Virus record (IMG/VR): IMGVR_UViG_3300049846_001081
DNA: 64,000 bases
Strand: one strand, 5' to 3'
Origin: a virus
Lineage: Duplodnaviria > Caudoviricetes
Part shown: in pieces, positions 12,502-41,323 of the stretch
Numbering within the stretch: position 1 is the first letter of the stretch
Layout: each line of letters opens with the position of its first letter
Made by a program: the position numbers and the translations under genes
Notes under the pieces: generated by a model
Database searches by the model: none
What the model saw: only the letters and a program-made list of their open reading frames with translations
Told to the model about the DNA's origin: nothing

Positions 12502-13644
12502 ATGGCAACTTTTAAAAAGGGCGTATGGGATTTACAGCAGGTAAGGGATCAATATCTTGATGGTGTATGGACTTATGAATCTCCAGAAAGAGCATTATAT
12601 ACCTTTGGTAATAATTCTTCTGGAGAATTAGGACAAAATAATATAACACAATATTCATCACCTGTTCAAATTCCAGGAGTACAATGGATTGCTGTTTCGG
12701 GATCTTACAATTCATCTTCTGGATTGAAATCTGACGGAACTTTATGGACATGGGGATTAAATCCAGTTGGTCAATTAGGACTTAATAATACACAAAGAAT
12801 ATCATCACCAACACAAATTCCGGGAACACAGTGGGCAAAAATTGAGGGAGGAAATGGTGCTATATTTTCTATTAAAACTGATGGAACATTATGGGCATGG
12901 GGAGCAAATTATTCTGGACAATTAGGAATTAACTTATCAACCGGTACTTATCGCTCTTCTCCCGTTCAAATTCCAGGAACACAATGGAGTTTAGTTAGCA
13001 ATAATAGAACACAAACACTTGGTTTAAAAACTGATGGAACATTATGGGCATGGGGTGGATCTGATCAGGGACAATTAGGACAAAACGAAATAGCAAACCA
13101 ATATTCATCGCCAAGACAAATTCCAGGAACACAATGGAATTCTATTTCTAGTGCTTATTTTAGATCATATGCAACCAAAACTGATGGAACATTGTGGGCA
13201 TGGGGTAGAGGTGCATATGGAATGTTGGGTCAAAATGATCAGACACAATATTCATCACCAAGGCAAATTCCAGGAACACAATGGTCTTCAGTTCCATTAT
13301 CAATGTCTTATAACGCATTTGCATTCAAAAATGATGGAACTTTATGGGCTCTTGGTGGATATGGTGAATATGGAAGATTAGGACAGAATAATACAACATC
13401 ACGTTCGTCACCAGTTCAAATTCCGGGAACACAATGGAATTCTTTCTCTGGATCCTATTATGTTTCGGTAGCAACAAAAACTGACGGAACCGCTTGGTCT
13501 TGGGGTCGCAACTATTCTGGATATCTTGGACACGGTGATAGAATAGATAAATCATCCCCAACACAAATACCAGGAACACAATGGACGAGTGTTGGTGTGG
13601 GCGGATATACTGCAGGATTCACATTCCTACTTAAAAACCCATAA
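12502..13644 (+). CDS. RCC1/BLIP-II-like 7-bladed beta-propeller protein
   Basis: Seven repeats SSPxQIPG(T/V)QW...KxDGTLWxWG..GxLG after a short N-terminal peptide. Confidence 0.85.
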   Translation: MATFKKGVWDLQQVRDQYLDGVWTYESPERALYTFGNNSSGELGQNNITQYSSPVQIPGVQWIAVSGSYNSSSGLKSDGTLWTWGLNPVGQLGLNNTQRISSPTQIPGTQWAKIEGGNGAIFSIKTDGTLWAWGANYSGQLGINLSTGTYRSSPVQIPGTQWSLVSNNRTQTLGLKTDGTLWAWGGSDQGQLGQNEIANQYSSPRQIPGTQWNSISSAYFRSYATKTDGTLWAWGRGAYGMLGQNDQTQYSSPRQIPGTQWSSVPLSMSYNAFAFKNDGTLWALGGYGEYGRLGQNNTTSRSSPVQIPGTQWNSFSGSYYVSVATKTDGTAWSWGRNYSGYLGHGDRIDKSSPTQIPGTQWTSVGVGGYTAGFTFLLKNP

Positions 13645-13661
13645 TACATAACTAATAAACT

Positions 13662-13669
13662 TATAAATA
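13662..13669 (+). promoter_or_regulatory. T4-like late promoter
   Basis: Perfect TATAAATA 21 nt upstream of the ATG at 13691. Confidence 0.75.
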
Positions 13670-13690
13670 CTTTTAAAGTTTCACATACCG

Positions 13691-14408: not shown

Positions 14409-15542
14409 ATGATTACATCAACTACGAGTGGTGTTTGGGAACTTGATGAAGTTTATGCGAAGCGTAATGCTGAAAGGTGGAGACCTGGGATTGCTACTTA
14501 TGAATTGTGGGCATGGGGAGTTAATAATAATGGTGAACTAGCTCAAAATAATTTAACATATAGATCATCACCTGTTCAAATTCCAGGAACACAGTGGAAT
14601 GATGTTGCTTTTGGATATAACTCCACACTTGCATCAAAAACTGATGGAACATTATGGGCATGGGGATATAATTATTATGGAGAAGTCGGTGTAAATAATA
14701 GGACTAGATATTCATCACCAGTACAAATTCCAGGAACACAATGGAATAAAACTGTAGCAGGACTATATTATGTTGGTGCGTCAAAAACTGATGGAACTTT
14801 ATGGATGTGGGGGTATAATAATACCGGACAACTTGGACTTGGTGATAAGGTAACATATTCATCACCAGTTCAAGTTCCAGGTACTCAATGGAATAATTTT
14901 GCTGCTGGAATGTATGGATATTATTTAATGGCGGCAACCAAAACTGATGGAACTTTGTGGGTATGGGGTAGAGGAGTTAGTGGTGAAACGGGACAAAATG
15001 ATAGAATAAATCGTTCTTCACCAATACAAGTTCCTGGAACACAATGGTCTTTTATTAATGCTGGCACTGGTATATCTGCAACAAAAACTGATGGAACATT
15101 GTGGACATGGGGAGAAAATAATTATGGTCAATTAGGAATTAATGATGTAATATATCGTTCATCACCAGTTCAAGTTCCAGGAACACAGTGGAATAAAGTT
15201 TTTACTGGATACAACACTTTTGGGATTAAAACTGATGGAACATTATGGGCATGGGGATATAATGCTGCGGGAGAGCTAGGTCAAAATAATTTAACATATA
15301 GATCATCACCTGTTCAAATTCCAGGAACAGAATGGAATATTGTCGTTGCTGGATACAATCACTCTGCTGCAACAAAAACAGATGGAACTTTATGGACATG
15401 GGGAGCAAATGCTTATGGTACGAGTGGACAAAATGATCTTGTAACTCGTTCATCACCAACACAAGTTCCTGGAACGCAATGGAGTACAATAAATGGTGAT
15501 ATATATTCATATTTTGCAACTAAACAAATATTTACATATTAA
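14409..15542 (+). CDS. RCC1/BLIP-II-like 7-bladed beta-propeller protein
   Basis: Seven PGT(Q/E)W repeats with KTDGTLWxWG motifs. Confidence 0.85.
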   Translation: MITSTTSGVWELDEVYAKRNAERWRPGIATYELWAWGVNNNGELAQNNLTYRSSPVQIPGTQWNDVAFGYNSTLASKTDGTLWAWGYNYYGEVGVNNRTRYSSPVQIPGTQWNKTVAGLYYVGASKTDGTLWMWGYNNTGQLGLGDKVTYSSPVQVPGTQWNNFAAGMYGYYLMAATKTDGTLWVWGRGVSGETGQNDRINRSSPIQVPGTQWSFINAGTGISATKTDGTLWTWGENNYGQLGINDVIYRSSPVQVPGTQWNKVFTGYNTFGIKTDGTLWAWGYNAAGELGQNNLTYRSSPVQIPGTEWNIVVAGYNHSAATKTDGTLWTWGANAYGTSGQNDLVTRSSPTQVPGTQWSTINGDIYSYFATKQIFTY

Positions 15543-15548
15543 CAACAC

Positions 15549-16136
15549 ATGAATCCTTTTGAACTTATTATTATTCAACCGAATATTATACCGCAACATC
15601 ACATTCAAGAACTTCTTCAATTAACCAATCAACCAACATCAAGTGCAACTGTTGGTTCTGGTGAAGAAAAAATAGAAAAAGAAACAAGACATACATTATG
15701 GTATCCAATACCTTATCCCATGTTGCAGAATTTAACATCTGCAACAATGTCTTGCTATCAATCATTTATTCATTCAAAGTATAACTCCACAGTCAAAAAC
15801 ATAGAACCAACGCAGTTTCTAGGATATCCTATCGGCGGTCACTATATAGAACATAATGATAGCGAAAACTTTGAAGGAGGAAAGTGGGTTAGAATTGCTC
15901 CAAGAGACATTTCTATCCTGTATTACCTTAATGATGAATATACTGGTGGAGAACTAGAATTCACAAAATTGGGATTGACGATTAGACCTCAAAGAGGTAT
16001 GATGATAGCATTCCCATCTTATAAAGAGTTTGCTCATAAGGTACATCCAGTCAAATCTGGTGTTCGTTATTCATTGGTCACATGGTTAGAGACAGAGAAG
16101 AAAGTTTATGACACTATACGAAGAGAAAGGATTTGA
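15549..16136 (+). CDS. 2OG-Fe(II) oxygenase, prolyl-4-hydroxylase-like
   Basis: HND iron motif, ISILYYLNDEYTGGELEF, FPS..HKVHPVKSGVRYSLVTW. Confidence 0.9.
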   Translation: MNPFELIIIQPNIIPQHHIQELLQLTNQPTSSATVGSGEEKIEKETRHTLWYPIPYPMLQNLTSATMSCYQSFIHSKYNSTVKNIEPTQFLGYPIGGHYIEHNDSENFEGGKWVRIAPRDISILYYLNDEYTGGELEFTKLGLTIRPQRGMMIAFPSYKEFAHKVHPVKSGVRYSLVTWLETEKKVYDTIRRERI

Positions 16137-16689
16137 GGTTGTTCCTCATTTTATTCCTCCATTTTTTGCACAATATCTAAGAAATTATTTTGATTTGCTA
16201 AGAGTAAATGATCAGATCCCAAATAAAGGTGATGAACAAGTAGAAAAATCACTTGGGATTTATGGTGACCCAGCATTTGATATGCTAATGTTAATGTCTC
16301 TACCTAAAGTGGAAGAAGTTGTTGGAAAGAAACTTCTTCCAACTTATACCTATGCCAGAATTTATTTCAATGGCGCTGGGTTGCTTCCACATGTGGATCG
16401 TGAAGAATGTGAGCACTCTGTTTCTCTCTGTCTTGGTGGTGAATATAATTCTCTATGGCCATTGTGGTTTAAGAATGAGAACACAGATCCTGAATACGCA
16501 GCGATGAGTGAAGGAGATGCTGTAATCTATAAAGGAAATAAAGTTCATCATTGGCGTGATGAATTTGAAGGAGTAACACAATTTCAAGTATTCATGCATT
16601 ATGTTGAAGCAGAAGGTGAATACAAGAATAAGTTATTTGATACAAGACCCTACATTGGACTGCCTGCTGGAACTAAAACTGAGTATTGA
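16108..16689 (+). CDS. 2OG-Fe(II) oxygenase
   Basis: YARIY..LLPHVDR.ECEHSVSLCL, GDAVIYKG..HHWR, QVFMHYV. Confidence 0.85.
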   Translation: MTLYEEKGFEVVPHFIPPFFAQYLRNYFDLLRVNDQIPNKGDEQVEKSLGIYGDPAFDMLMLMSLPKVEEVVGKKLLPTYTYARIYFNGAGLLPHVDREECEHSVSLCLGGEYNSLWPLWFKNENTDPEYAAMSEGDAVIYKGNKVHHWRDEFEGVTQFQVFMHYVEAEGEYKNKLFDTRPYIGLPAGTKTEY

Positions 16690-16691
16690 AG

Positions 16692-17984
16692 ATGATCCAA
16701 CAACTGATTATTGAACTGAGTGAAAAAGGTGAACCAAAAGCAGCAAAAGAATTAGCAAAGGCATATCTCAAACATTCACCAGACCCTGAGATAATAAATC
16801 TGCTTGGTAAACTGCATCATGATGATAAAGAATTTGATAAAGCATTAGAATGTATGAATGCATTGCAGGAATCTCCTGGTGTAATCATCAACAAAGCAAA
16901 GTGTCTTTATTATCTACGACGAGCACCAGAAGCAGAGAAACTTCTTCTTAAACTTCCAAAAGAAGTTAGAGAAGATCCTTTGACGCAGATTGATCGCTCA
17001 CTTTATACGACTGCACAAGGTAAGTTTGATTTAAGCAAGAGAATTCTTGAACCACTTGCAGATACCATTCCACAGGCTGCATTTAATTATGGATGGTTTT
17101 TGTTGAATGATGACTTCTTAAAGGGTTATGAATACATTCGTGCAGGTGCAAAGTTAAGAGTATGGGGGCATGAATGGTTACTGAAAGAAAAGTATGGAAT
17201 TGATGAAGACCAACGTTGGAATGGAGAAGAAGTAGATACGATTGCATACTATCTTGAAGGTGGTATGGGTGATGAGATGATTTTTATTCGTTATGCAAAT
17301 CATTTTAAAAAATATTGCAAGACTCTTAAGATCTTCTGCACCAAATCCACCAAACCATTGTTTGAAGCATGTGGATATGAAAATGTCTATCTACATGAAG
17401 ATATTGTAAGAACCAAATGGACAAAGTTTGTTCCTGCAATGTCTGCACCATATTTTCTGGGTCTTTCTGGTCCTTGTGAAGGTGTAGAATTTCCTTATCT
17501 ACAAAAGCAAGCAAATCCAGTTCCTGAGATGAATGAAGTCGCAAAGGGACGCAAGAAGATTTGTATTCGTTGGAAAGGAAATCCACAATTTGAACATGAC
17601 CAATTCCGTAGTATTCCAATTGAAAAACTACTTGGATTGGATAAGTTTGGTCAGTTGTTTTCTATTCAAATTGAAGATAGTGACTTACCAAAAAATGCAC
17701 CAGTATGGGATTTAAGTCATCTAATTCATAACTGGAATGATACTTATGATATCTTTGCAGAAAGTGATTTAATTATCACATCTTGTACTGCGACTGCACA
17801 TCTTGCTGGTGCGATGGGCAAGAGACTGATTGTAATGCCTCCTTTGGTTCCTTATATTCCTTGGGCATCTGAGAGTATTAAATGGTATGGTGATAATGTG
17901 ACTGTCTTAAAACAAATGGAATACAACAGTTGGGATAAGACAATTGAAAAACTTTATGAGGTCATGGAAAATGAGATTTCATAG
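16692..17984 (+). CDS. TPR-containing GT-B (GT9-like) glycosyltransferase
   Basis: N-terminal TPR-like helices; EGGMGDEMIFIRYA, ICIRWKGNP, FSIQ and DLIITSCTATAHLAGAMGK motifs. ATG at 16692 (track uses TTG at 16686). Confidence 0.75.
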   Translation: MIQQLIIELSEKGEPKAAKELAKAYLKHSPDPEIINLLGKLHHDDKEFDKALECMNALQESPGVIINKAKCLYYLRRAPEAEKLLLKLPKEVREDPLTQIDRSLYTTAQGKFDLSKRILEPLADTIPQAAFNYGWFLLNDDFLKGYEYIRAGAKLRVWGHEWLLKEKYGIDEDQRWNGEEVDTIAYYLEGGMGDEMIFIRYANHFKKYCKTLKIFCTKSTKPLFEACGYENVYLHEDIVRTKWTKFVPAMSAPYFLGLSGPCEGVEFPYLQKQANPVPEMNEVAKGRKKICIRWKGNPQFEHDQFRSIPIEKLLGLDKFGQLFSIQIEDSDLPKNAPVWDLSHLIHNWNDTYDIFAESDLIITSCTATAHLAGAMGKRLIVMPPLVPYIPWASESIKWYGDNVTVLKQMEYNSWDKTIEKLYEVMENEIS

Positions 17985-18666
17985 TTTTTATACAGAAAAT
18001 CTTCCAGAACAAATTATTCATGATCACCAAAAGTGTTGTGAAAAAGTAGGAGTTGAAGTTTATTATCATAAGTATCCTGAGTTTGAAACCTATGATGATG
18101 CATTTTTTGCTCATGGTGATTTCATGACGAAAATGATGCAAGAAGAAACAGATGATGTTGTTTGTTTTCTTGATGTAGATTGTCTACCTACCAATAAGGA
18201 CATTCTTTTCGCTGGTTATCAATGGGCAAAAGAAAATCATTCTTTCGTTGGTAATGCACAAAACATTTCTCACATGCAGTTGAGAAACTATCTTTATTCT
18301 GCACCAGGTCTCACGCTTCTATCTAAAAAAGGTTGGGAAAGAGTTGGAAGTCCAAGCCTCCGTGCGTTTCATCAAAATGACACCTTGATTGATACCATTC
18401 ATATTGTAAGTTTAAGAGCAGACCAAATTGCAATGGATTATCAATTGATGTATCCAGTTGGATTTGATGGTGATGAAGAATCACCATCACGTCTTGGAAG
18501 TTATGGTTATTATGGAAAAGGAACATTATATCCTGCATCATGGCACTACTTTAGAATTAGTGACTTTATTGGAAAAGAAAATCTTCCTGAGTTGTGGACA
18601 AAGAGAGTTGATGATATAATGAATGGTAGGCAAATTATTCCAAGATATACGTCAAGATATTATTGA
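17971..18666 (+). CDS. GT-A-like glycosyltransferase (DxD)
   Basis: VCFLDVDCLP DxD motif; paralog of 19270-19932. ATG at 17971 is preferred over TTG at 17944. Confidence 0.55.
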   Translation: MRFHSFYTENLPEQIIHDHQKCCEKVGVEVYYHKYPEFETYDDAFFAHGDFMTKMMQEETDDVVCFLDVDCLPTNKDILFAGYQWAKENHSFVGNAQNISHMQLRNYLYSAPGLTLLSKKGWERVGSPSLRAFHQNDTLIDTIHIVSLRADQIAMDYQLMYPVGFDGDEESPSRLGSYGYYGKGTLYPASWHYFRISDFIGKENLPELWTKRVDDIMNGRQIIPRYTSRYY

Positions 18667-18667
18667 G

Positions 18668-19273
18668 ATGAATATTGAAACATATAGTTTATTTCCAACT
18701 AACATTGTAAGAACTGATTTCAAAGGTTTCATTACCCCAGAAGATCATTCTGCAATGATGCAAAGTGTTGATATGTTAATTGAGAATGGCGTTTATACTG
18801 ATAATGAACTGACCCCAAAGTATCAAACATCAGTAATTCTATTTCATGAAGATGCTCCACCAATCTGGCAGAAGTTAAAGCAAACATTTTATCAAGCATG
18901 TCATAATTATTTGCAAGCAACACCAGGATTTACTGGAAATCAGAATGCACTGGAGTTCACTGGTGCAGGTGCATGGTGTTACAAAGGATGGAAATCTTTA
19001 AATGCAAAAGAAACAAATCCATGGCACAATCACAATCCATCATTTCTTTCTGGTGTTTATTATCTAAAAGTTCCTGGTGATTGGTCTGTTGGTGGAACAG
19101 AATTTCATGATCCACGTACAGCACCAGCACACGGAAATCAAAATCAGTGCATTGCACCACAAGAATATACTTGGATTATTTTTCCTGGTTGGTTATCACA
19201 CAAAAGCAATTATGTTGATACTGAAGAACCACGCTATGTAATAGCCGCAAATATGTATGTAAAAGTCAAATGA
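18668..19273 (+). CDS. 2OG-Fe(II) oxygenase (TIGR02466-like)
   Basis: Starts with LFPT; HNH..LSGVYYLKVP; IIFPGWLSH; RYVIAAN. Confidence 0.8.
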   Translation: MNIETYSLFPTNIVRTDFKGFITPEDHSAMMQSVDMLIENGVYTDNELTPKYQTSVILFHEDAPPIWQKLKQTFYQACHNYLQATPGFTGNQNALEFTGAGAWCYKGWKSLNAKETNPWHNHNPSFLSGVYYLKVPGDWSVGGTEFHDPRTAPAHGNQNQCIAPQEYTWIIFPGWLSHKSNYVDTEEPRYVIAANMYVKVK

Positions 19274-19932
19274 AAAGAGCAATTTTTACTTTCTATAATC
19301 TATCAATTGATAAAGAGGTTATACGACTTCAACATGAAGTGATTCAGAAGTTAAACAAAACTGCTGACTTTCTTCCTTTATGTTCTCAAACGCATGGTGA
19401 GGAAGTTATTCATCCAGATGGTGTTGAATATGGATTTCATCAACTGTTTCAAGAGTATGATACAGTTTTGCTTTTAGATGTTGACTGTATTCCCTTAAAT
19501 CAATATGCACTTGAGTATACCTTTGAACAAGCAGAAAGTGGCAAGTTGATTGGTAATGCACAGATTGGTGCTCATCTACAAAATCCAGAACATCTATATG
19601 TTGCTCCATCAGCATTTTGTCTTACACGAAAAATGTTTGAGGACTTTGGAAGACTTACATTTAAACCCGATCATTATCATGCAGATACCTGTGGATTCTA
19701 TACGCTTGAAGCAGAAAAGCGTGGAGTAGAAGTAGAATTTTATATGCCCACACATTTCCAACGACCACCAAGAAATGCTGTATGGGATTTAGGTCAAGGT
19801 CGTGGTCAGTATGGTATTGGTACTACATATTCAAATCATCTTGGTGTGAATATGTTCTATCATCTATTTGAAAGTCGTCTAAATGTATATAATTGTCTGT
19901 TCTACGATAAATGTGAGGAGTTACTGAAATGA
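19270..19932 (+). CDS. GT-A-like glycosyltransferase (DxD)
   Basis: LLLDVDCIPL, LIGNAQ and YVAPSAFCL shared with 17971-18666. Confidence 0.55.
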   Translation: MKRAIFTFYNLSIDKEVIRLQHEVIQKLNKTADFLPLCSQTHGEEVIHPDGVEYGFHQLFQEYDTVLLLDVDCIPLNQYALEYTFEQAESGKLIGNAQIGAHLQNPEHLYVAPSAFCLTRKMFEDFGRLTFKPDHYHADTCGFYTLEAEKRGVEVEFYMPTHFQRPPRNAVWDLGQGRGQYGIGTTYSNHLGVNMFYHLFESRLNVYNCLFYDKCEELLK

Positions 19933-20528
19933 ATACTTATCTTGATGCATGTGTAGAAAATCCAAGAACATTAGACCTTGGAAATGATATGTATGCCATT
20001 GAATTCTGGAAACCAGAATTTTGTAAAGAGTTAATCAACATTGCAGAAAATATTGAAGGAGGGTTTCAGAGTCAACCAGGAGACCCTGTATACGGTCAGG
20101 AGATACGTATCAGTAGGATTAGTGATTTATTCTATTTAAATTACTGTGAGCACTGGAAACGTGTTGTATCGCCGTTTCTTGATGAGAAGATTGGCATGTC
20201 TAGTGAACAGTGGTTTGTTGGGTGGAAAGTTCCTTTTATTATCAAATACACAATGGATGGTCAGAGAGGTCTTCGTCCTCATGCTGATGATAGTTTATAT
20301 ACGGGCACAATTAAACTAAATGATGAATACACTGGTGGTGAACTGATTTATCCACGTCAAAAGTTCAGTAATAAAGATGTCCCAGTTGGTACAATGATTC
20401 TTGCTCCATCAATGATTACTCATGTTCATTATAGTAGTGAACTTGAAAGTGGAACGAAGTATTCTTTTGTATCTTGGACGAAACTAAATAGGAAAGATAG
20501 CGGTATAAACTACTCAGAAGTACAATGA
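19929..20528 (+). CDS. 2OG-Fe(II) oxygenase, procollagen lysyl-hydroxylase (PLOD)-like
   Basis: FIIKYTMDGQRGLRPHADDSLYTGTIKLN..YTGG..P..ITHVH...SGTKYSFVSW parallels the PLOD catalytic domain pattern (FVVRY..Q.SLRPHHD.S..T.NIALN, P.RLTH.H). Confidence 0.75.
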   Translation: MNTYLDACVENPRTLDLGNDMYAIEFWKPEFCKELINIAENIEGGFQSQPGDPVYGQEIRISRISDLFYLNYCEHWKRVVSPFLDEKIGMSSEQWFVGWKVPFIIKYTMDGQRGLRPHADDSLYTGTIKLNDEYTGGELIYPRQKFSNKDVPVGTMILAPSMITHVHYSSELESGTKYSFVSWTKLNRKDSGINYSEVQ

Positions 20529-21679: not shown

Positions 21680-21685
21680 TAAATA
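21679..21685 (+). promoter_or_regulatory. Late promoter
   Basis: ATAAATA upstream of the sulfotransferase gene. Confidence 0.6.
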
Positions 21686-21707
21686 ACAACAAACAGAATT
21701 TTACATC

Positions 21708-31334: not shown

Positions 31335-33518
31335 ATGGCTTTAAACTTTCCTGATAGTCCTGCATTAAATGAACTATATACTGACCCAACCACAGGATTT
31401 ACATATCAGTGGAATGGAGAAGTTTGGAAAAGTGCTGTATTATCAAATCCAGATTCTATTAAAGAACTTACGGATATCTCAGCATCATTTAATGGAAGTA
31501 CTCAAACATTTGCACTGAGTATTTCTGGTGCTTCAGTTACGCCAGTCAATGCACAACAACTTATCATTAATCTTGGTGGTGTCATTCAAAATGCAGGAAC
31601 TGATTATACCGTATCAGGAAGTAATATTACCTTTACAACAGCACCAGCATCAGGTCTTTCATTCACTGGATTGTTTGTTGGTTCTGCAATTTCATTAAAT
31701 TCTGTTGCAAGTAATTCAGTAGAACCACAAGACCTTACAACTGGTGGACCCACATGGAATACTGCTGGTGGTGTTAGAATTTCTGGTGTTGCAACAATTT
31801 CTAATACTGGTTCTGCAACTACTGCATTATATGTTGCTGGTGGTGCAAGAATCACTGGTATTCTGACTGTTGGTTCATCAAGTGTTACGATTGATGGAAC
31901 AAATGATTCTATTAAAGTCGGTACTGGTCTTACTGTTAATGCATCGGGAATTACTGCAGGTATAATTACAGCAACTACTTTCTATGGTGATGGAAGTAGT
32001 CTTGCTGGTGTTGGTGTAGGCACAACCGCAAGTATCAATACAACAGGAATTATTACTGCATCATATTTCTATGGAAGTGGTATAGGTATTACAAATGCTG
32101 GTCCTTTAGGTAGAATTTCACCTATCACTTACTCTCCTGGTATTGGTCAAACAAACGTAGGACTTACAACTAATATTGTCATCACATTCAATAAACCATT
32201 AGTTGCATCTTCTGGAACGATTACTTTAAGAACTGATAGTGCTACTGGTGCAATTATTGAAAGCTTTGATGTTGGTACTAGTTCTTCTATTAGTATCAGT
32301 GGTGGTGTTTTGACTGTGAATCCAACTAGTGATTTGGTTGGTTTCACAACTTATTTCCTTGTAGTGCCAGAAGGATGTTATAAAGATAAGTTAAACAGTA
32401 GCACGAATGCTGGTATTACAACTTATAGTTTTACTACACAGCAGTTGAATTTTACTTTATTTGCTGTTGGTGATGGTCAATATGGCCAATTAGATAATAA
32501 CATATCTGATACGACAGGTCATCGTTCATCACCAGTACAAATTCCAGGAACTCAATGGGGCACAGTTAATTTTGATTATATATTCAGTGCTGCATTGAAA
32601 ACTGATGGGACTTTATGGACTTGGGGAAATAATGTTGAAGGACAACTAGGTCATAACAGTCAAGGTATTGATCGTTCATCACCAACACAGGTTCCAGGAA
32701 CACAATGGAATAAATTATCAACTGATCAATATCATGTTTTTGCAATTAAAAATGATGGAACTTTGTGGGGTATTGGTGGCAGAAATCAAGTAGGAGAATT
32801 GGGGCAAAACTTTACTGGATCACGTTCTTCACCGGTCCAAATTCCAGGAACACAATGGTCTGAAATTTCGGGGCAATTAAATAGTGAAGTCGCTCTTAAA
32901 ACTGATGGAACGTTGTGGTCATGGGGAATTGGATCTAATGGGTGCTTAGCACAAAATAATACAACACAATATTCGTCACCAAGACAAATTCCAGGAACAC
33001 AGTGGACAAATATTTACTCAGGAAATCTTGGATCAGTAGCAAAAAAAACTGATGGAACTTTTTGGATATGGGGAGCAAATCAATATGGACAATTGGGATT
33101 AAATGATCAAGTAAATCGTTCATCACCAATACAACTTCCGGGAACACAATGGAGTGCTTTTTCTTTAGGTTATACATCTGCACTGGGAGTTAAAACTGAT
33201 GGAACTTTATGGGCATGGGGATATAACACAAATTATGGCGCATTAGGTTTAAATGATGTAGTTCACAGATCATCGCCAACACAAATTCCAGGAACACAAT
33301 GGAATAAAGTAAATGCTCATTATTATAGATCATATGCAACAAAAACAGATAATACTTTATGGGCATGGGGATACAATAATCGTGGGCAATTGGGACAAAA
33401 TGATGTTGTATCATATTCATCTCCAAGACAAATTCCAGGGACTCAATGGGTAGATCCATTTGCAAAAACACCTTACGCTGGATTTCATAACCATGCTTTG
33501 TTTATAAAGAATGAATAA
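31335..33518 (+). CDS. Fibre-Ig-RCC1 propeller protein, type B N-terminus (MALNFPDSP)
   Basis: NFPDSP..TYQWNG..FNGSTQTF..GGVIQ..DYT N-terminal module, Ig domain, seven blades. Confidence 0.85.
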   Translation: MALNFPDSPALNELYTDPTTGFTYQWNGEVWKSAVLSNPDSIKELTDISASFNGSTQTFALSISGASVTPVNAQQLIINLGGVIQNAGTDYTVSGSNITFTTAPASGLSFTGLFVGSAISLNSVASNSVEPQDLTTGGPTWNTAGGVRISGVATISNTGSATTALYVAGGARITGILTVGSSSVTIDGTNDSIKVGTGLTVNASGITAGIITATTFYGDGSSLAGVGVGTTASINTTGIITASYFYGSGIGITNAGPLGRISPITYSPGIGQTNVGLTTNIVITFNKPLVASSGTITLRTDSATGAIIESFDVGTSSSISISGGVLTVNPTSDLVGFTTYFLVVPEGCYKDKLNSSTNAGITTYSFTTQQLNFTLFAVGDGQYGQLDNNISDTTGHRSSPVQIPGTQWGTVNFDYIFSAALKTDGTLWTWGNNVEGQLGHNSQGIDRSSPTQVPGTQWNKLSTDQYHVFAIKNDGTLWGIGGRNQVGELGQNFTGSRSSPVQIPGTQWSEISGQLNSEVALKTDGTLWSWGIGSNGCLAQNNTTQYSSPRQIPGTQWTNIYSGNLGSVAKKTDGTFWIWGANQYGQLGLNDQVNRSSPIQLPGTQWSAFSLGYTSALGVKTDGTLWAWGYNTNYGALGLNDVVHRSSPTQIPGTQWNKVNAHYYRSYATKTDNTLWAWGYNNRGQLGQNDVVSYSSPRQIPGTQWVDPFAKTPYAGFHNHALFIKNE

Positions 33519-33540: not shown

Positions 33541-33544
33541 GATA

Positions 33545-35716
33545 ATGGCAATAAATTTTCCTGATAGTCCTTCATTAAACGATATTTTCACTGATGAAAC
33601 TTCTGGGTTTACATATCAGTGGGATGGTGAAGTATGGAAAAGTTATGTTGACCCAACGATTGGAAACGTCACAAAGTTAGATGACATCAGTGGTTCATTT
33701 AATGGAATAACATCATCATTTGCACTGACTGTAAACAGTAGTCCTGCAACTGCAGATTTAGATCCAGCAAAAATTATCTTAAGTTTGGGTGGTGTTGTAC
33801 AAAATCCAGTACAAGATTACACAATCAGTGGCACAACCCTTACATTTACAACAGCACCAGCAGTTGGTCTTTCGTTTTTTGCATCATTTTATGAAACTGG
33901 CATCAATAAAAATTATATTTCTTCTAATACAATTTCTCCATCAAATCTTACCACTGGTGGATTTTCTTGGAACACTGGTGGTGACTTATATATCAGTGGT
34001 GTTTCTACAGTCTCTAATACTGGAACCGCAACTACAGCACTTTATGTTTCTGGAAATGCTAGAGTTGCAGGTATTCTAACGGTAGGATCTTCTAGTATTA
34101 CAATTGATGGAACAAATAATAGAATTACAGGCACAGGAATTACAATCAGCAGTGGTGGTATTGTAGGTGTTGCAATTACTGCGACTAGTTATTTTGGTGA
34201 TGGAGTAAATCTTGTTGGTGCGGGAATAGGTACACAAACAAGCATTAACACATCGGGTATCATTACTGCATCTAAGTTTTCTGGTGATGCAACATATATC
34301 ACTGATGTTGGTGGAATTTTAGATGCGATTGTTTATAGTCCAGGTGTTGGAGTTACTAATGTATCTCTTACATCAAATATTATTCTTACATTTAATAAAC
34401 CAATCAAAGCCAACACTGGTACAATTACATTAAGAACTGGCAGTGCATCAGGTACTATTGTAGAGAGTTATGATATTACATCAAGTAGTAATTTAACAAT
34501 CAGTGGTGCAAAGTTAACAATTGACCCAACTAGTTCTTTAAGTGGATTCACAACTTATTTTGTTGTTGTACCAGCAGGAACTGTTAAAGATTTGTATAAC
34601 ACTGGAAGTAGTGCAGTAATTGATGATTATAGTTTTATAACCACACAACCAAATTTTCAATTATTCGCTTGGGCAAGCAATAATGCTGGTCAATTGGGTC
34701 AAAACAGTACAACATATTATTCATCACCAATACAAATTCCAGGAACACAGTGGAATCAGATTAGTGCAGGTGATGGTCAAGCTTCATATGGAATAAAAAG
34801 TGACAATACTTTGTGGTCATGGGGATATAATCAGTATGGAGATTTAGGTCAAAATAATAAAACAAATTATTCCTCACCAATACAAATTCCAGGAACACAG
34901 TGGTCTTACATAGAAGGAGGAGCTAATCATGCACTTGCGACAAAAACTGATGGAACTTTGTGGGTATGGGGTGCTAATATTAATGGAAGATTAGGTCAAA
35001 ATTCACTCAATGATCACAAATCATCACCAGTGCAAGTTCCAGGAACACAGTGGAAAACAGTGAGAGGTGGAGTGTCTGGGGGGAGTTTTCAATCATTAGC
35101 AATCAAAACTGATGGAACACTATGGGCATGGGGAAGAAATCAACAAGGAAATCTTGGACAAAATAATATTGTAGATGCATCATCACCAGTTCAAATTCCT
35201 GGCACTCAATGGAGTTACGCAGATAGTGGACTTCAACAATCATTCGCACTTAAAACTGATGGAACATTATGGGTATGGGGATATAATCACAGAGGTCAAA
35301 TAGGAGATAACTCCACTATTAATAAGTCATCACCAACACAACTTCCAGGAACATCATGGAATTCTGTTAGTTGTGCATATCTTCAAGGTTATGCAATTAA
35401 AACTGACGGAACATTATGGTCTTGGGGATTTAATTATGGTGGAGGTCTTGGATTAAATCAACCCGGAGGATTTGCTACAGATGTATCCTCACCAACACAA
35501 ATCCCAGGAACACAATGGAAGGGTGTTGATGGAGGATTGTATAGATTCCTTGCAACCAAAACGGATAATACACTCTGGGCAGCAGGAAGAAGTTATGGTG
35601 GAAACAATGGACAGAATAATGCGATTGATTATTCATCACCAATTCAAGTTCCAGGAACACAGTGGTCTTCCGTAAGTAATGGAAATAATCAATCATTGGC
35701 AATCAAACAAACATAA
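33545..35716 (+). CDS. Fibre-Ig-RCC1 propeller protein, type B
   Basis: MAINFPDSP N-terminus, Ig domain, seven blades. Confidence 0.85.
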   Translation: MAINFPDSPSLNDIFTDETSGFTYQWDGEVWKSYVDPTIGNVTKLDDISGSFNGITSSFALTVNSSPATADLDPAKIILSLGGVVQNPVQDYTISGTTLTFTTAPAVGLSFFASFYETGINKNYISSNTISPSNLTTGGFSWNTGGDLYISGVSTVSNTGTATTALYVSGNARVAGILTVGSSSITIDGTNNRITGTGITISSGGIVGVAITATSYFGDGVNLVGAGIGTQTSINTSGIITASKFSGDATYITDVGGILDAIVYSPGVGVTNVSLTSNIILTFNKPIKANTGTITLRTGSASGTIVESYDITSSSNLTISGAKLTIDPTSSLSGFTTYFVVVPAGTVKDLYNTGSSAVIDDYSFITTQPNFQLFAWASNNAGQLGQNSTTYYSSPIQIPGTQWNQISAGDGQASYGIKSDNTLWSWGYNQYGDLGQNNKTNYSSPIQIPGTQWSYIEGGANHALATKTDGTLWVWGANINGRLGQNSLNDHKSSPVQVPGTQWKTVRGGVSGGSFQSLAIKTDGTLWAWGRNQQGNLGQNNIVDASSPVQIPGTQWSYADSGLQQSFALKTDGTLWVWGYNHRGQIGDNSTINKSSPTQLPGTSWNSVSCAYLQGYAIKTDGTLWSWGFNYGGGLGLNQPGGFATDVSSPTQIPGTQWKGVDGGLYRFLATKTDNTLWAAGRSYGGNNGQNNAIDYSSPIQVPGTQWSSVSNGNNQSLAIKQT

Positions 35717-35732: not shown

Positions 35733-35733
35733 G

Positions 35734-37452
35734 ATGAGCCAAAATAAAGCACAACTTATTGCGCCAGTTGGAATATTTACTGCATCAGGTATTAATGCAA
35801 CTGGTGTAGTAACTGCTTCTAGTTTTATTGGTGATGGTTCACAACTTCAGGGTGTAGGTATTGGAACTACTGGAAGTGTTAACTCTTCTGGTATTATCAC
35901 TGCATCTGCTTTTTATGGGGATGGTTCAAATCTTACTGGTATCACACTTTTAGGTCCAACAAATAGTTTAAACACATCAGGTATCATCACTGCAGGGAGT
36001 TTTTATGGTGATGGTGTTGGTATTACAAATATTGGTGGTCCATTAGATGCAATTTCTTATTCTCCAGCAATTGGATCAACAAATATATCTTTAACAACAA
36101 ATATCGTCATTACATTTAATAAACCCATTGCTGGATCAGCCGCAACAGCAGGTATTGCATCAGTTACATTAAGAACTGGAAGTGCATCAGGAACTATTGT
36201 AGAAACTTTTGATGTTGCAACGAGTACTGCTTTAAGTATTAGTGGTGGTGTATTGACAATTGACCCAACTAGTTCTTTAAGTGGATTCACAACTTATTTT
36301 GTTGTTGTACCAGCGGGAACATTTGAAGATACTTTGGATAGTAGTAGTAATGTTGGTATTACAACTTATAGTTTTACAACGATACAACCAAATTATGAGT
36401 TGTATTCATCTGGGGTGAACTCGTATGGACAGTTAGGTACTGGTGATGCAATACCACGTTCATCACCAGTGCAAATTCCAGGAACACAATGGAAATCAAT
36501 CAACAATGGATATTATGATGTAACTTCCGTAAAAACTGATGGAACATTGTGGGCATGGGGTTATAATGGAACTGGAGGATTAGGATTAAATGATGTAGTA
36601 CATCGTTCATCACCTGTACAAGTTCCAGGAACACAGTGGGCATGGGTTGTAATGGGTTATCAACCTACAATGGCAACCAAAACTAATGGAACTTTATGGT
36701 CATGGGGTTATAATTTATACGGACAACTAGGACAAAATAGTATAATAAATCGTTCATCACCAATTCAAATTCCAGGTACGCAGTGGGATTATTCTGACAG
36801 AAAAAAAATATCTATGGGAGACTATGCCATTTTTTCTCCAATGGCATTAAAAACTGATGGTACATTATGGACATGGGGTTATAATTACCATGGACAATTG
36901 GGTCAAAATAATGTAGTAAATTATTCATCACCAGTTCAAGTTCCGGGAACACAATGGTCAAAAGTATCGTCTGGGGGAGCAAATTTTGCACTTAAAAGCG
37001 ATGGAACATTATGGACATCCGGAATTAATGCCAGTGGATCATTGGGTCAAAATAATAAAGTATATTATTCATCACCAGTTCAAATTCCAGGAACACAATG
37101 GAATGATGTTGATGCTAATAGATATGCTGTCATGGCAACAAAAACCGATGGAACTCTATGGTCATGGGGAAGAAATCCTGTAGGTCAATTGGGTCAAAAT
37201 AATTTAACCAGATATTCTTCTCCTGTACAAATTCCAGGAACACAATGGGCATCATTCTCACAAAACTACTATAGTGCTAATGCAACAAAAACTGATGGAA
37301 CTTTATGGGCATGGGGAGCCAATTCTAATGGTGAGTTGGGTCAAAATAATATAACATATTATTCTTCACCAGTTCAAATTCCAGGAACTCAGTGGAAATA
37401 TTCAGCAGATTCTGGAACACTTTATACTTTATTTGTTATTAAGGAATCATAA
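35734..37452 (+). CDS. Fibre-Ig-RCC1 propeller protein, type A
   Basis: MSQNKAQL N-terminus, Ig domain, seven blades. Confidence 0.85.
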   Translation: MSQNKAQLIAPVGIFTASGINATGVVTASSFIGDGSQLQGVGIGTTGSVNSSGIITASAFYGDGSNLTGITLLGPTNSLNTSGIITAGSFYGDGVGITNIGGPLDAISYSPAIGSTNISLTTNIVITFNKPIAGSAATAGIASVTLRTGSASGTIVETFDVATSTALSISGGVLTIDPTSSLSGFTTYFVVVPAGTFEDTLDSSSNVGITTYSFTTIQPNYELYSSGVNSYGQLGTGDAIPRSSPVQIPGTQWKSINNGYYDVTSVKTDGTLWAWGYNGTGGLGLNDVVHRSSPVQVPGTQWAWVVMGYQPTMATKTNGTLWSWGYNLYGQLGQNSIINRSSPIQIPGTQWDYSDRKKISMGDYAIFSPMALKTDGTLWTWGYNYHGQLGQNNVVNYSSPVQVPGTQWSKVSSGGANFALKSDGTLWTSGINASGSLGQNNKVYYSSPVQIPGTQWNDVDANRYAVMATKTDGTLWSWGRNPVGQLGQNNLTRYSSPVQIPGTQWASFSQNYYSANATKTDGTLWAWGANSNGELGQNNITYYSSPVQIPGTQWKYSADSGTLYTLFVIKES

Positions 37453-37465
37453 ATATCTAAAAAAC
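37449..37465 (+). promoter_or_regulatory. Late promoter within conserved intergenic element
   Basis: ATAAATATCTAAAAAAC. Confidence 0.75.
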
Positions 37466-37466
37466 C

Positions 37467-39161
37467 ATGAGTCAATCTAAAGCACAACTTACAAACCCAT
37501 TAGGAACTGTAGATCTCAGTGGTTTAAATGCAACTGGTGTGGTTACTGCTACAACATTTAAAGGTGATGGAACTGCTTTAACTGGTATTGCACTCACGGG
37601 AAATATCAATACAACAGGTATCATTACCGCAGGTAAATTTTATGGTAGTGGAGCAAACCTAACTGGCGTTGGATTAGGAACACAAAGTAGCATTAATACT
37701 ACGGGAATTATCACCGCAGGTAAGTTCTATGGTGATGGTTCAGGGTTGACTAATATTGGTGGTGCTTTTACAGTCTTAACTTATCAACCAAATATTAGTT
37801 CAACAAATGTAGGATTAACAACAAATATTATTCTCACATTTAATAAACCAATTAAGAAAGGAACTGGTACAATCACCTTAAGAACTGGTAGTGCATCAGG
37901 TACGGTTGTAGAGAGTTATGATGTATCTACCAGTAGTAATTTAAGTATCAATGGTGGTGTATTAACGATTGATCCTACTTCTTCTTTAAGTGGATTAACA
38001 ACTTATTTTGTTGTTGTACCAGCAGGAACTGTTAAAGATGTATATAGCGTGGACAATAATAGTTTAATTGATACTTATAGTTTTACCACACAACAGTTGA
38101 ATTTTGAATTATGGGCATGGGGATTTAATGCATACGGAAACCTGGGTCAAAATAATTACACACAATATTCATCACCAAGACAAATTCCAGGAACACAATG
38201 GACTAAAGTTTCTTATGATTACATTGGCCCAGTTTTGGCAACAAAAACTGATGGAACTTTATTTGCCTGGGGAAATAATGGTAGTGGTGAATTGGGTCAA
38301 AATGATGTAACGCCACAATTATCTCCTGTACAGATTCCAGGAACACAATGGAATAATATTTGTGCAGGATATAATACAGGACTAGCAACAAAAACTGATG
38401 GAACTTTGTGGGTATGGGGAAATAATGGTAATGGTAATTTGGGACTTAATAATGTAGTAGCACGTTCATCGCCAGTTCAAATTCCGGGAACACAATGGGA
38501 ATATGTTCAAGGTTCAGATTACAGTGCCAGCACTATAGCAACAAAAACGGACGGGACTTTATGGGTTTGGGGAGATAATGGTGCCGGAAAGTTAGGTCAA
38601 AATAACTTAACACAATATTCATCACCAATTCAAGTTCCAGGAACACAATGGAATGGAGCATACATGAATATTGCGTATCCTACATATGTTGGCAAAACTG
38701 ATGGAACTTTGTGGGCGTGGGGATATAATTCTGATGGCCAATTAGGACAAAACAACATAATACCACGTTCATCACCAGTGCAAATTCCAGGAACACAATG
38801 GACAGGTGATATTGGTACTGGGTATATTCATGTACTTGCAGTAAAAGGTGATGGAACATTATGGTCATGGGGATATAATGGTAGTTCAAGATTAGGTGAT
38901 GGAACAACAACATCACGTTCATCACCAGTGCAAATTCCAGGAACACAGTGGAGTAAAGTTGAAGGTGGATACAATCATAGTGCTGCATTAAAAAATGATG
39001 GAACTTTTTGGGCATGGGGCGAAAATACCTATGGTCAGGCGGGAAAAAATAATACTACAGCATCAACAACACCAGTTCAAGGTGCAACGAATGCAAGTGG
39101 ATTTATTGATATTGCAGGAAGAATTTATAGTGCGTTGGCAATCAAACAAGTAGCACCATAA
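37467..39161 (+). CDS. Fibre-Ig-RCC1 propeller protein, type A
   Basis: MSQSKAQL N-terminus, Ig domain, six PGTQW blades plus one divergent last blade. Confidence 0.85.
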   Translation: MSQSKAQLTNPLGTVDLSGLNATGVVTATTFKGDGTALTGIALTGNINTTGIITAGKFYGSGANLTGVGLGTQSSINTTGIITAGKFYGDGSGLTNIGGAFTVLTYQPNISSTNVGLTTNIILTFNKPIKKGTGTITLRTGSASGTVVESYDVSTSSNLSINGGVLTIDPTSSLSGLTTYFVVVPAGTVKDVYSVDNNSLIDTYSFTTQQLNFELWAWGFNAYGNLGQNNYTQYSSPRQIPGTQWTKVSYDYIGPVLATKTDGTLFAWGNNGSGELGQNDVTPQLSPVQIPGTQWNNICAGYNTGLATKTDGTLWVWGNNGNGNLGLNNVVARSSPVQIPGTQWEYVQGSDYSASTIATKTDGTLWVWGDNGAGKLGQNNLTQYSSPIQVPGTQWNGAYMNIAYPTYVGKTDGTLWAWGYNSDGQLGQNNIIPRSSPVQIPGTQWTGDIGTGYIHVLAVKGDGTLWSWGYNGSSRLGDGTTTSRSSPVQIPGTQWSKVEGGYNHSAALKNDGTFWAWGENTYGQAGKNNTTASTTPVQGATNASGFIDIAGRIYSALAIKQVAP

Positions 39162-39174
39162 ATATCTAAAAAAC
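39158..39174 (+). promoter_or_regulatory. Late promoter within conserved intergenic element
   Basis: ATAAATATCTAAAAAAC. Confidence 0.75.
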
Positions 39175-39178
39175 GATA

Positions 39179-41323
39179 ATGGCAATAAACTTTCCTGATA
39201 GTCCATCGTTAAATGAAATCTTTGCTGATGCCACTACTGGATTCACATATCAGTGGAATGGAACTGTTTGGGTAAATTATAATGTTTCTACGCCTGCAAA
39301 GATACAAGAACTTGATGATATTAGTGGATCATTTAATGGTTCAACACAAACTTTTTCATTAACAGTATCAAGTGGTGCAGTCACTCCAGTAAAGCCAGAT
39401 CAATTAATCATCAATATCGGTGGTGTTGCACAGAATCCAGGTGTTGACTATACATTATCAGGAAGTAATATTACCTTTACAACTGCACCCACAGCAGGAT
39501 TAAGTTTTTATGGTGTATTGTTAGGTGGATCAACAAGTATTACTTCAGTAGAATCAGGGACAGTAAGACCAGATTCATTTACAACTGGTGGTCCTACATG
39601 GAATACTGGTGGAGATTTAAAAGTTACTGGTGTTACAACGATTGCAAACACTGGTTCTGCAAGTACAGCACTTTATGTTTCAGGAAATGCTAGAATTACT
39701 GGAATTGTAACTGTTGGATCATCAAGTATTACAATTGATGGATCAAATAATTCAATTAAGGTAGGGACTGGTGCAACATTAAATGCATCAGGAATTACTG
39801 TTGGTATTATTACTGGTAAGTTCTATGGTAATGGTAGTGGATTATCAAATGTAGGTGTAGGTACAACAGGAAGTATTAATACATCTGGTATTGTTACTGC
39901 ATCAAGTTTTTATGGTGATGGTTCAGGACTTACAAATCTTGGTGGACCATTATCTGTTTTAACTTATCAACCAAGTATTGGTGCAACAAATATTGATTTA
40001 AATCCAACCATTGTCCTTACATTCAATAAACCAATTAAAGCAAACACAGGTACAATTACCTTAAGAACTGGTAGTGCATCCGGTGCAATTATAGAGAGTT
40101 ATTCCGTTGGTACAGGTTCTTCAGTAACAATTAGTGGCGGTGTTTTAACAATTACACCTACAGTAACTTTAGGCGTAGGAGTTACTCATTACTTGGTTAT
40201 CCCATCTGGTGCTTATAAAGATGATTTTGAAAGTTCTTCAAATTCTTTAATTGATAATTATTATTTTAAAACCGTAGATTCAGTATATCAGTTGTTTGCA
40301 TGGGGAACTGATGGTCAAGGACAGTTGGGTCAAAATAATGCAGGAAATCGTTCATCACCAATTCAAATTCCGGGAACACAATGGTCTAAAGTTACTGCAT
40401 ATTATCATGTCACAGCAACAAAAACTGATGGAACTTTATGGACTTGGGCACAAAATAGTAATGGCCAATTGGGACAAAATGATGTACAAAGGAGGTCATC
40501 ACCAACACAAGTTCCAGGAACCCAATGGAATGCTATTAGTGCGGGATATACGCATACTTTTGCAACCAAAACAGATGGTACTTTATGGGTATGGGGAAGA
40601 AATAATGTTGGAGAATTAGGAAAAAATAATAAAACATATTATTCATCACCAGTTCAAATTCCAGGAACACAGTGGAATAATATATCTGCTTCAATATTTT
40701 ATTCATTAGCAACTAAAACTGATGGAACTCTATGGGCATGGGGTTCGTCTGGTAGTGGTCAATTGGCACAAAATAATGTAACATATTATTCATCACCAGT
40801 TCAAATTCCAGGAACACAATGGAATAAACCTTTTACTGGATATGTATGGTCAGGAGCAACCAAAACAGATGGTACTTTATGGGCATGGGGTTATAATCCA
40901 ACAGGTGTCGCAGGTCAAAATGATAGAATAGATTATTCATCACCAAGACAAGTTCCAGGAACACAATGGAACAATGTTTCAGCAGGATATTATCATGTCT
41001 TAGCAACAAAAACTGACGGAACCTTGTGGGCATGGGGTAGTGAGGGTGATGGATCTGTTGGTCAAAATAATAATGTAAGATACTCATCACCAGTTCAAAT
41101 TCCAGGAACATCATGGGTATTAACTGATGATAGTGGTAGTGGATATACTTCTTTAGCAAGAAAAACTGATGGAACCTTATGGGCATGGGGTAAAAATGGT
41201 TCAGGACAATTGAGCACAAATGATGGAGTAGCACGTTCATCACCAACACAAATTCCAGGAACACAATGGAATGCAACTTCTCAAGGATACGCAAGTTGTT
41301 TTGTAATCAAGTCGCCAATATAA
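39179..41323 (+). CDS. Fibre-Ig-RCC1 propeller protein, type B
   Basis: MAINFPDSP N-terminus, Ig domain, seven blades. Confidence 0.85.
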   Translation: MAINFPDSPSLNEIFADATTGFTYQWNGTVWVNYNVSTPAKIQELDDISGSFNGSTQTFSLTVSSGAVTPVKPDQLIINIGGVAQNPGVDYTLSGSNITFTTAPTAGLSFYGVLLGGSTSITSVESGTVRPDSFTTGGPTWNTGGDLKVTGVTTIANTGSASTALYVSGNARITGIVTVGSSSITIDGSNNSIKVGTGATLNASGITVGIITGKFYGNGSGLSNVGVGTTGSINTSGIVTASSFYGDGSGLTNLGGPLSVLTYQPSIGATNIDLNPTIVLTFNKPIKANTGTITLRTGSASGAIIESYSVGTGSSVTISGGVLTITPTVTLGVGVTHYLVIPSGAYKDDFESSSNSLIDNYYFKTVDSVYQLFAWGTDGQGQLGQNNAGNRSSPIQIPGTQWSKVTAYYHVTATKTDGTLWTWAQNSNGQLGQNDVQRRSSPTQVPGTQWNAISAGYTHTFATKTDGTLWVWGRNNVGELGKNNKTYYSSPVQIPGTQWNNISASIFYSLATKTDGTLWAWGSSGSGQLAQNNVTYYSSPVQIPGTQWNKPFTGYVWSGATKTDGTLWAWGYNPTGVAGQNDRIDYSSPRQVPGTQWNNVSAGYYHVLATKTDGTLWAWGSEGDGSVGQNNNVRYSSPVQIPGTSWVLTDDSGSGYTSLARKTDGTLWAWGKNGSGQLSTNDGVARSSPTQIPGTQWNATSQGYASCFVIKSPI

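Follow-up and report, generated by a model that had tools for sequence, protein, structure and literature searches.

We analysed a 64,000-nucleotide (nt) stretch of phage DNA, record IMGVR_UViG_3300049846_001081 (hereafter the window; all coordinates are 1-based on the whole stretch), in which nine open reading frames (ORFs), termed g1–g9, encode seven-bladed propellers of the RCC1 type (Table 1). All nine are on the plus strand, as are all large ORFs of the window, and each matches both Pfam RCC1 (PF00415; E 5e-35 to 1e-53) and PF25390 (147–238 bits). There are seven SSPxQIPGTQW anchor motifs per gene at a spacing of 48–57 residues, with the seventh blade closed by the N-terminal strand, which bears out the count of nine genes and seven RCC1 blades per gene given in an initial annotation of this DNA. 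The repertoire is real, and its size and regularity are unusual. The source appears from its sequence to be a new freshwater T4-like cyanomyovirus, because a 1955-residue protein encoded at 1329–7196 is 64% identical to a fibre of Synechococcus phage S-SM2, its neighbours match tail-fibre and baseplate PHROGs, a megablast search of the RCC1 array against 50,697 phage records returned a single 45-nt match and nothing longer, and near-complete copies of the window are present only in freshwater metagenome runs.

Table 1. Propeller genes of the window and the features that accompany them (aa, amino acids).
Feature	Position	Strand	Description
g1	12502..13644	+	380 aa, propeller only, N-terminal leader of ~27 aa; Pfam RCC1/PF25390, seven anchor motifs; starts 12 nt after ORF 11641-12489
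g2	14409..15542	+	377 aa, propeller only; Pfam; protein used for folding
g3	20525..21679	+	384 aa, propeller only, inside the modification-enzyme island; Pfam; CTAAATA at -41
g4	29611..31317	+	Short-anchor 'MSQ' fibre; repeat shaft aa 1-101, Big_5 aa 109-211, propeller aa 214-568; Pfam
g5	31335..33518	+	Long-anchor 'MALNFPDSP' fibre; anchor (aa 1-373) contains Big_5 at 265-368, propeller follows; Pfam
g6	33545..35716	+	Long-anchor fibre, 723 aa, Big_5 and propeller; Pfam; anchor orthogroup support 99
g7	35734..37452	+	Short-anchor fibre, 572 aa; Pfam; anchor orthogroup support 97
g8	37467..39161	+	Short-anchor fibre, 564 aa; in contig L023 this propeller lineage has a long anchor
g9	39179..41323	+	Long-anchor fibre, 714 aa; Pfam; PHROG tail-fibre and virion-structural matches
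Repeated intergenic cassette	31314-31334, 33524-33544, 35716-35733, 37449-37466, 39158-39178, 41320-41340	+	Before g5, g6, g7, g8, g9 and ORF 41341
Enzyme island	15549..29581	+	Between short propeller genes, outside the repertoire; Pfam: at least 5 2-oxoglutarate (2OG)-Fe(II) oxygenases, sulfotransferase, GT25 glycosyltransferase, methyltransferase, tetratricopeptide repeat (TPR) protein, DUF6445

The six long genes (g4–g9) encode, besides the propeller, a Big_5 Ig-like domain (Pfam) and an N-terminal anchor belonging to one of two classes; all six are situated in the tail-fibre module, among genes with matches to tail-fibre and baseplate PHROGs. The first is ~210 aa long and starts MSQ.KAQL (g4, g7 and g8), the second is ~370 aa long and starts MA.NFPDSP (g5, g6 and g9), and repeats of the form G-I-I-T-A-x-x-F-x-G-x-G-x-x-L-T-G are found in both. 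The long anchors match PHROG tail-fibre and virion-structural families (E 1e-10 to 1e-14) as well as cyanophage proteins so annotated. There is no PHROG match for the short MSQ anchor, and PDB sequence searches with the anchors returned nothing significant and no solved homologue. In a tblastn search of the phage collection, matches were found only in cyanophage, Clostridioides, Brevibacillus and a few others. Related arrays were collected from IMG/VR and Joint Genome Institute (JGI) contigs; among these, loci L001–L006 and L022 represent a single phage, whose six long genes are syntenic.

Five of the fibre genes and ORF 41341 are preceded by the repeated cassette, in which an ATAAATA late-promoter motif, most often sharing nucleotides with the stop codon of the gene before it, is followed by a YCTAAAAAAC(G/C)(ATA) leader and then ATG. 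The ATAAATA motif is located 18–21 nt upstream of the g5–g9 and ORF 41341 starts and 37 nt upstream of g4, while CTAAATA is found at -31 of the ORF that ends just before g1. The same cassette is present in L004 as a 59-nt exact repeat. Each fibre gene is predicted, from the promoter consensus, to have its own late start.

For an alignment of 54 complete blades we defined two constant segments, C1 (SSPxQIPGTQW) and C2 (KTDGTLWxWG), with V1 lying between them and V2 following C2. C1 and C2 are near invariant, V1 is highly variable and V2 is semi-variable around a GxLGxN motif, the segments between the motifs being those of high entropy. Pairwise identity between blades has a mean of 55% and a range of 40–73%. 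Asparagine makes up 8.5% of V1 and 17.7% of V2 (background 6.2%), tyrosine 8–9% of the variable segments (background 4.5%), serine 14% of V1 and glycine 17% of V2. The alternating segments rich in Y/N/S/G that had been noted initially are therefore present as regards both their enrichment and the variability of V1, but V2 is only semi-variable and holds the conserved GxLGxN.

An AlphaFold2 model of g2 was obtained with a predicted local distance difference test (pLDDT) score of 92.6 and a predicted template modelling (TM) score of 0.86, and comprises 7 × 4 = 28 blade strands and an N-terminal helix at residues 12–23. Foldseek placed the RCC1-like domains (RLDs) of UVR8, HERC1/2, RPGR and RCC1 at the top (TM 0.79–0.84, E 1e-24 to 1e-32, 18–27% identity), with TM 0.81–0.84 for UVR8, HERC and RCC1. 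The initial assignment to a BLIP-II/RCC1 fold was correct with respect to the RCC1-like propeller; BLIP-II as the nearest fold was rejected, because 3qhy ranks 49th (TMq 0.56), far below the eukaryotic RLDs. Nor was the UVR8 match taken as a hint of photoreception: the regular RLD fold accounts for it, and the UVR8 chromophore motif was not seen in the blades, although no explicit search for that motif was made. There is no reason to expect guanine nucleotide exchange factor activity or chromatin binding, as in RCC1 proper, in the phage of a bacterium.

Within each blade the strands are ordered SSPxQI / W-x5 / x5-K / LWxWG. Because loops alternate faces in an antiparallel blade, this topology would place the constant PGTQ and TDGT turns on one face of the propeller. 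The tip of the V1 hairpin, together with the long V2 loop, would lie on the opposite face, which is the likely candidate for the ligand face. Residues 1–215 of g4, modelled as three copies, gave an ipSAE of 0.43 (best control 0.00) with an interface at residues 11–101, at least 93% contact agreement between runs and a partner pLDDT of at least 81. In our calibration, 20 of the 30 proteins known from solved structures as pairs attained the 0.43 mark, compared with 1 of the 23 known as single chains. The model suggests that the fibres are trimeric.

The scaffold is conserved at the level of DNA as well as protein. Two DNA strings that the initial annotation had quoted for the constant segments occur 40 and 38 times at ≤3 mismatches, all on the plus strand and within the nine genes, where shuffled sequences lead one to expect 0; exact copies number only two each. 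The near-identity that had been claimed for these segments at DNA level is upheld on this count and by a synonymous conservation that goes beyond codon bias, and 336 maximal exact repeats of ≥20 nt are found in 12400–41400. Codon homozygosity in SSPxQIPGTQW and KTDG is 0.65–1.0, versus 0.26–0.67 expected. The dominant codons include TCA for Ser (43 of 53 and 47 of 54 blades; background 28%), GGA for Gly (51 of 54; background 42%) and AAA for Lys (54 of 54). This dominance holds at the conserved residues of C1 and of the first half of C2; in GxLGxN, where Gly and Leu are conserved to the same degree, codon use is at background. Threonine is encoded by ACA in PGT but by ACT in KTD, which argues against a simple codon bias. 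The preferred scaffold codons are identical in the diverged relatives L004, L007 and L008. Synonymous divergence (dS) between syntenic orthologues is 0.38 for C1 and 0.75 for anchors. Orthologous and non-orthologous blades have the same synonymous mismatch in C1 (0.227 and 0.224, respectively), so that the synonymous sites of C1 are without vertical signal, a pattern which would be compatible with either homogenisation or site-specific nucleotide selection.

Comparison of the arrays separates the history of the anchors from that of the propellers. Anchors are 72–79% identical on the synteny diagonal and 50–64% off it; propellers are 51–65% identical to all others. A tree of the anchors contains six orthogroups (support 97–100), in every one of which the window, L004, L023 and L024 are represented once. 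For anchor pairs at 72–89% identity, the propeller variable columns are identical at a fraction of 0.31–0.39, against a background of 0.35 ± 0.06; the g6 anchor, for example, is 79% identical to that of L004 o3 and the corresponding variable-column identity is 0.39. Only g9 has an anchor and a propeller that are both orthologous to L004, its propeller forming a clade with that of L004 o6 (support 99) at a variable-column identity of 0.50. The g4 anchor belongs to an orthogroup with L004_535 and L024_1025 (support 99), while its propeller groups instead with L023_5493 and L024_8548. The first of these propeller partners, L023 5493–7196, is the anchor orthologue of g8, and the g8 propeller, which is borne on an MSQ anchor, pairs at a support of 100 with L023 7214–9382, which has an MA.NFP anchor. 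This last pair is 73% identical blade by blade, odd loops and degenerate last blade included. Between g5 and L028, an identity of 86% across the anchor falls abruptly to scaffold-only identity at aa ~372 (junction ..YSFTT..), beyond which the propeller variable columns are at the background of 0.35; the propeller that L028 bears on its g5-type anchor pairs with that of L004 o1. Approximately unbiased (AU) tests of the anchor and propeller trees rejected congruence in both directions (p = 1.1e-6 and 4.9e-6). The region L029:2747–5083 has no RCC1 motif but encodes anchors of either type (MSVTKAQL, 338 aa; MALNFPDSP, 424 aa), and anchors therefore carry other distal domains too.

Whole propellers are shown by these comparisons to behave as exchangeable heads on conserved anchors, since the anchor orthogroups are conserved, the propeller tree is incongruent with them, the g5/L028 break is abrupt, the g8 head recurs in L023 and the L029 anchors carry other distal parts. 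The sequence at the anchor/propeller junction is itself conserved (..YSFTTQQLNFELWAWG..; junction motif YSFTTQQLNFELW). Exact matches between the window and the related loci of other phages are ≤50 nt and mostly in the scaffold, the exception being one 107-nt match to L028 that spans the g5/g6 intergenic region and the start of g6; among these matches there is no loop common to different phages at non-orthologous places. The seventh anchor motif of g8 is degenerate, with TTPVQGATNAS (TTPVQGATNASGF) in place of SSPxQIPGTQW (last blade at 39066–39161). Because the same odd blade is kept in L023 7214–9382, it is evidently an inherited trait of this head lineage and not a sign of decay.

Some further observations concern the heads. 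L007:1814–4522 encodes a 902-aa protein of the MSQ class with 11 SPxQxPG motifs, more than a single seven-blade propeller accounts for, and it may be a tandem or extended propeller. In an independent freshwater run, X4, the long contigs listed for 29000–42000 cover only anchors (1–8 differences per 370–820 nt, ~98–99% identity), and one contig goes on into the propeller region of g4, where its sequence is unlike. This pattern fits head exchange and hints at a close strain that may have other heads; the missing contig cover is no evidence. The many 'joints' in contigs of four runs were discarded as paralogue cross-mapping at 80% likeness.

Exchange on a scale smaller than the propeller was found in L004, where tracts of 83 and ~190 nt, ending in C1 or C2, are common to non-orthologous blades of different genes. 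With codons shuffled within alignment columns as the null, the longest exact match in L004 is 85 nt versus a null maximum of 46, and there are 34 matches of ≥30 nt versus 14.5 ± 4.6. The scaffold also has variants specific to lineages. C1 reads SSPVQIPGTTW in 43 of the 46 blades of L008 (T for Q, with distinct codons for Ile and Thr), where the window has Q in 59 of 62, and the cyanophage S-SRM01 has another uniform scaffold, TPVTTFAGGTNWKQV / AAIKTDGTLWTWG. Since such variants fill nearly all blades of L008 and S-SRM01, this lineage-specific uniformity indicates homogenisation among blades, in what would be a case of concerted evolution. A nucleotide tree of the 54 individual blades, proposed in the initial annotation as a check, is an unresolved star that clusters neither by gene (39 changes vs 39.8 when shuffled) nor by position (34 vs 35.5), and was set aside as uninformative either way about shuffling.

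The loops are the least constrained part of the propeller, yet they are under purifying selection on average. For the true propeller orthologues g8 and L023 7214, the ratio of nonsynonymous to synonymous divergence (dN/dS) is 0.385 in V1, 0.36 in V2 and 0.10 in C1 and C2, compared with 0.2–0.3 in anchors. Higher V1 values (0.66–1.35), obtained for anchor-orthologue pairs, were rejected as evidence of positive selection because most of these pairs compare unrelated heads; likewise, the recovery of only 8 of 41 expected best loop matches between the window and syntenic genes of L004 was rejected as evidence of hypervariability, most pairs not being propeller orthologues. The L001–L006 population differs by 1–3 bases in 12.9 kb across six metagenomes, and the array is therefore stable in the population. 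Contigs from the freshwater runs X1 and X2 have 0 differences to the window, of which they are possibly the source. No reverse transcriptase (RT)-like ORF was seen among the annotated ORFs of the window, nor does the window contain a template/variable repeat pair, the longest repeats inside the array being ≤59 nt; as far as the window goes, this agrees with the system without RT supposed in the initial annotation. Its description of the repertoire as antibody-like was overstated, given the loop dN/dS of 0.36–0.39 in orthologues, the near-invariant sister population and the lack of a clear conversion tract in the window. The diversity is germline and old, exchanged as cassettes and not made on the fly, because orthologue loops are kept and the sister population hardly varies.

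The reading that we favour, and consider fairly probable, is that the nine genes are paralogous late genes for binding proteins, probably borne on the virion, with propeller heads that belong to old lineages and have been reshuffled by recombination. A virion location and a role in binding the host surface are suggested by gene context, late promoters, anchor homology and the trimer model; the closest experimental parallel is the occurrence of RCC1-like proteins in the virion proteome of phage phAPEC6 (PMC7247149). Six of the proteins would be fibres, made up of a trimerising N-terminal anchor of either class, Big_5 and a C-terminal seven-bladed propeller, and the other three would be a propeller with a short leader. 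Their diversity would come from old and diverged propeller lineages, from homologous recombination that moves whole propellers from one anchor slot or phage to another, with crossovers at the anchor/propeller junction and the scaffold segments, and from occasional short-patch conversion between blades. The same recombination, acting as concerted evolution, would hold the scaffold uniform down to its synonymous sites, and diversification would be slow and evolutionary, not programmed. The identity of the scaffold would thus stem from conversion rather than from selection at the nucleotide level.

A number of points weigh against this interpretation. The groups submitted to the AU tests were chosen after the trees had been seen. 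In the window itself there are 13 shared runs of ≥30 nt versus 14.7 ± 5.4 under the column-shuffle null, with no clear conversion tract, and re-phasing of the units yields a weak excess (maximum 43 nt, p = 0.013, range 0.013–0.023). The initial proposal that blades and loops are swapped by recombination accordingly holds for whole-propeller moves, for the 83–190 nt patches of L004 and for the L008 variant, but not for blade shuffling within the window, where the runs fit the null. Conservation of scaffold synonymous sites across phages could reflect a mutation-selection balance at the nucleotide level. Furthermore, g1–g3 have no recognisable fibre anchor, the faces were assigned from strand topology rather than coordinates, and the g4 trimer is a prediction whose calibration is for two copies rather than three.

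It is unlikely, in our judgement, that the array is a static family of paralogues, produced by duplication and divergence and maintained by purifying selection together with position-specific codon or nucleotide constraint (translation, mRNA structure, folding), with no real blade recombination in this phage. Such a family would be in keeping with the ability of position-specific codon frequencies to account for the shared runs of the window, with preferred codons being kept across phages at an anchor dS of ~0.75, with the lack of structure in the blade tree and with purifying selection on the loops of true orthologues, but it leaves both the anchor/propeller incongruence and the patch transfers of L004 unexplained. 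It would also require the scaffold variants of L008 and S-SRM01 to have arisen by parallel change in >40 blades, which is very unlikely without homogenisation. We are equally doubtful that scaffold DNA is kept identical in order to provide recombination joints, as an evolvability device with which co-infecting phages and paralogous slots would trade propellers or loops, and up to nine heads could be retargeted with no dedicated enzyme; this would bear a functional likeness to pilin or variant surface glycoprotein (VSG) cassette variation. Loops rich in Y/N/S/G on a fixed scaffold do look like engineered binders or those of diversity-generating retroelements (DGRs), and there are hundreds of short homologies. 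Nevertheless, active hypervariation of an antibody- or DGR-like kind, in which loops would be rewritten fast by programmed recombination or mutagenic retrohoming, is largely refuted and hardly credible in view of the stability of the L001–L006 population, the unchanged X1 and X2 contigs (subject to their possible identity with the source of the window), the constraint on orthologue loops and the lack, in the window, of a template/variable pair, of array repeats longer than 59 nt and of an RT-like ORF among those annotated.

There is, finally, a slim chance that the propellers do not bind receptors at all and are instead internal or DNA-associated virion proteins, intracellular effectors that mimic RCC1 or, in the case of the short three, substrates or partners of the hydroxylase/glycosyltransferase island. 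RCC1-like phage proteins do carry the annotation 'DNA condensation' (PMC7247149), genes for modification enzymes are interspersed among the short genes in both the window and S-SRM01, and cellular RLDs are mostly protein-interaction domains. Against this, six of the nine propellers are fused C-terminally to a fibre-type anchor and an Ig-like domain within the fibre module, distal domains that are swapped at a fixed junction are what one sees in receptor-binding tips, and in L029 both kinds of anchor carry distal domains other than RCC1.

Conserved N-terminal anchors with exchangeable C-terminal tips are characteristic of the modular fibres and receptor-binding proteins (RBPs) of T-even, T7-like and lactococcal phages. 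The present array resembles these in its conserved anchors, in its sharp breakpoints to unrelated distal domains and in the L029 anchors that carry other distal domains; it differs in that the tip is an RCC1 seven-bladed propeller, present nine times, and in that the scaffold adds ~14 homology blocks per gene. With the eukaryotic RLDs of UVR8, HERC1/2, RPGR and RCC1 the array shares the seven-bladed propeller and Pfam RCC1 repeats, and the blades of cellular RLDs are probably far less uniform than those of the window (55% mean). DGRs and cassette-based antigenic variation are functional analogues only, alike in a fixed scaffold, localised variable binding residues and homology blocks that move variable segments; unlike them, the window has no RT or template repeat, no population hypervariability, and orthologue loops that are conserved. 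In the literature we found no RCC1 phage receptor-binding protein and no characterised RBP with an RCC1 tip.

Two phages come closer in their gene content. The freshwater cyanomyovirus S-SRM01 (Kyanoviridae; NC_070963) has highly uniform blades in gp335, gp337 and gp344, annotated 'regulator of chromosome condensation'. Like g1–g3, these are three short RCC1 genes located after a fibre gene and among TPR, 2OG oxygenase, sulfotransferase and glycosyltransferase genes. Its propellers differ in being 42% identical to those of the window and in having a scaffold of their own, and there are no fibre-fused RCC1 genes in the stretch of S-SRM01 examined; the RCC1 genes are undiscussed in the paper that describes this phage. 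The Rak2-like jumbo coliphage phAPEC6 encodes eleven RCC1-like 'DNA condensation' proteins, for which a DNA-ordering role was proposed; several of them were identified when virions were analysed by mass spectrometry (Wagemans et al. 2020, PMC7247149, Table 1 therein). By description rather than sequence, phAPEC6 and the window are alike in having many ~40 kDa RCC1-type paralogues per genome (eleven and nine, respectively). The phAPEC6 proteins are propeller-only and belong to a jumbo coliphage, whereas the window comes from a T4-like cyanophage, has six of its nine on long fibre anchors with an Ig-like domain, and gives evidence of head exchange.

The surroundings of the array have several features of their own. 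The enzyme island has a syntenic counterpart in S-SRM01, where short RCC1 genes lie among oxygenase, sulfotransferase and glycosyltransferase genes, and the island enzymes may modify propellers or fibres post-translationally. The N-terminal leaders of g1–g3 (12502–12585, 14409–14495 and 20525–20600) have a weak common motif, [GN][VT]W[DEN]L..[VH]; that of g2 is predicted to be helical at aa 12–23, and the leader of all three may be a docking peptide. Just 5' of the giant fibre gene, an ORF at 617–1240 matches a Mom-like DNA modification protein and HNH/homing endonuclease PHROGs. The longest exact repeat of the window is a 95-nt direct repeat at 45777–45973, with copies 102 nt apart, within the fibre-like gene at 44394–46793.

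Little is understood of how T4-like cyanophages recognise their hosts, and for most of their fibre genes a receptor has yet to be assigned. Multi-copy RCC1-like virion proteins have already been published for jumbo coliphages, and the array is not unique in that respect. It suggests a function for the phage genes that are recurrently annotated as 'regulator of chromosome condensation' or 'DNA condensation', and would be an instance from nature in which recombination homogenises a repeat scaffold but leaves the loops distinct. For the cyanophages, it offers a testable picture of six conserved fibre slots and three free propellers, each of which would present a variable face.

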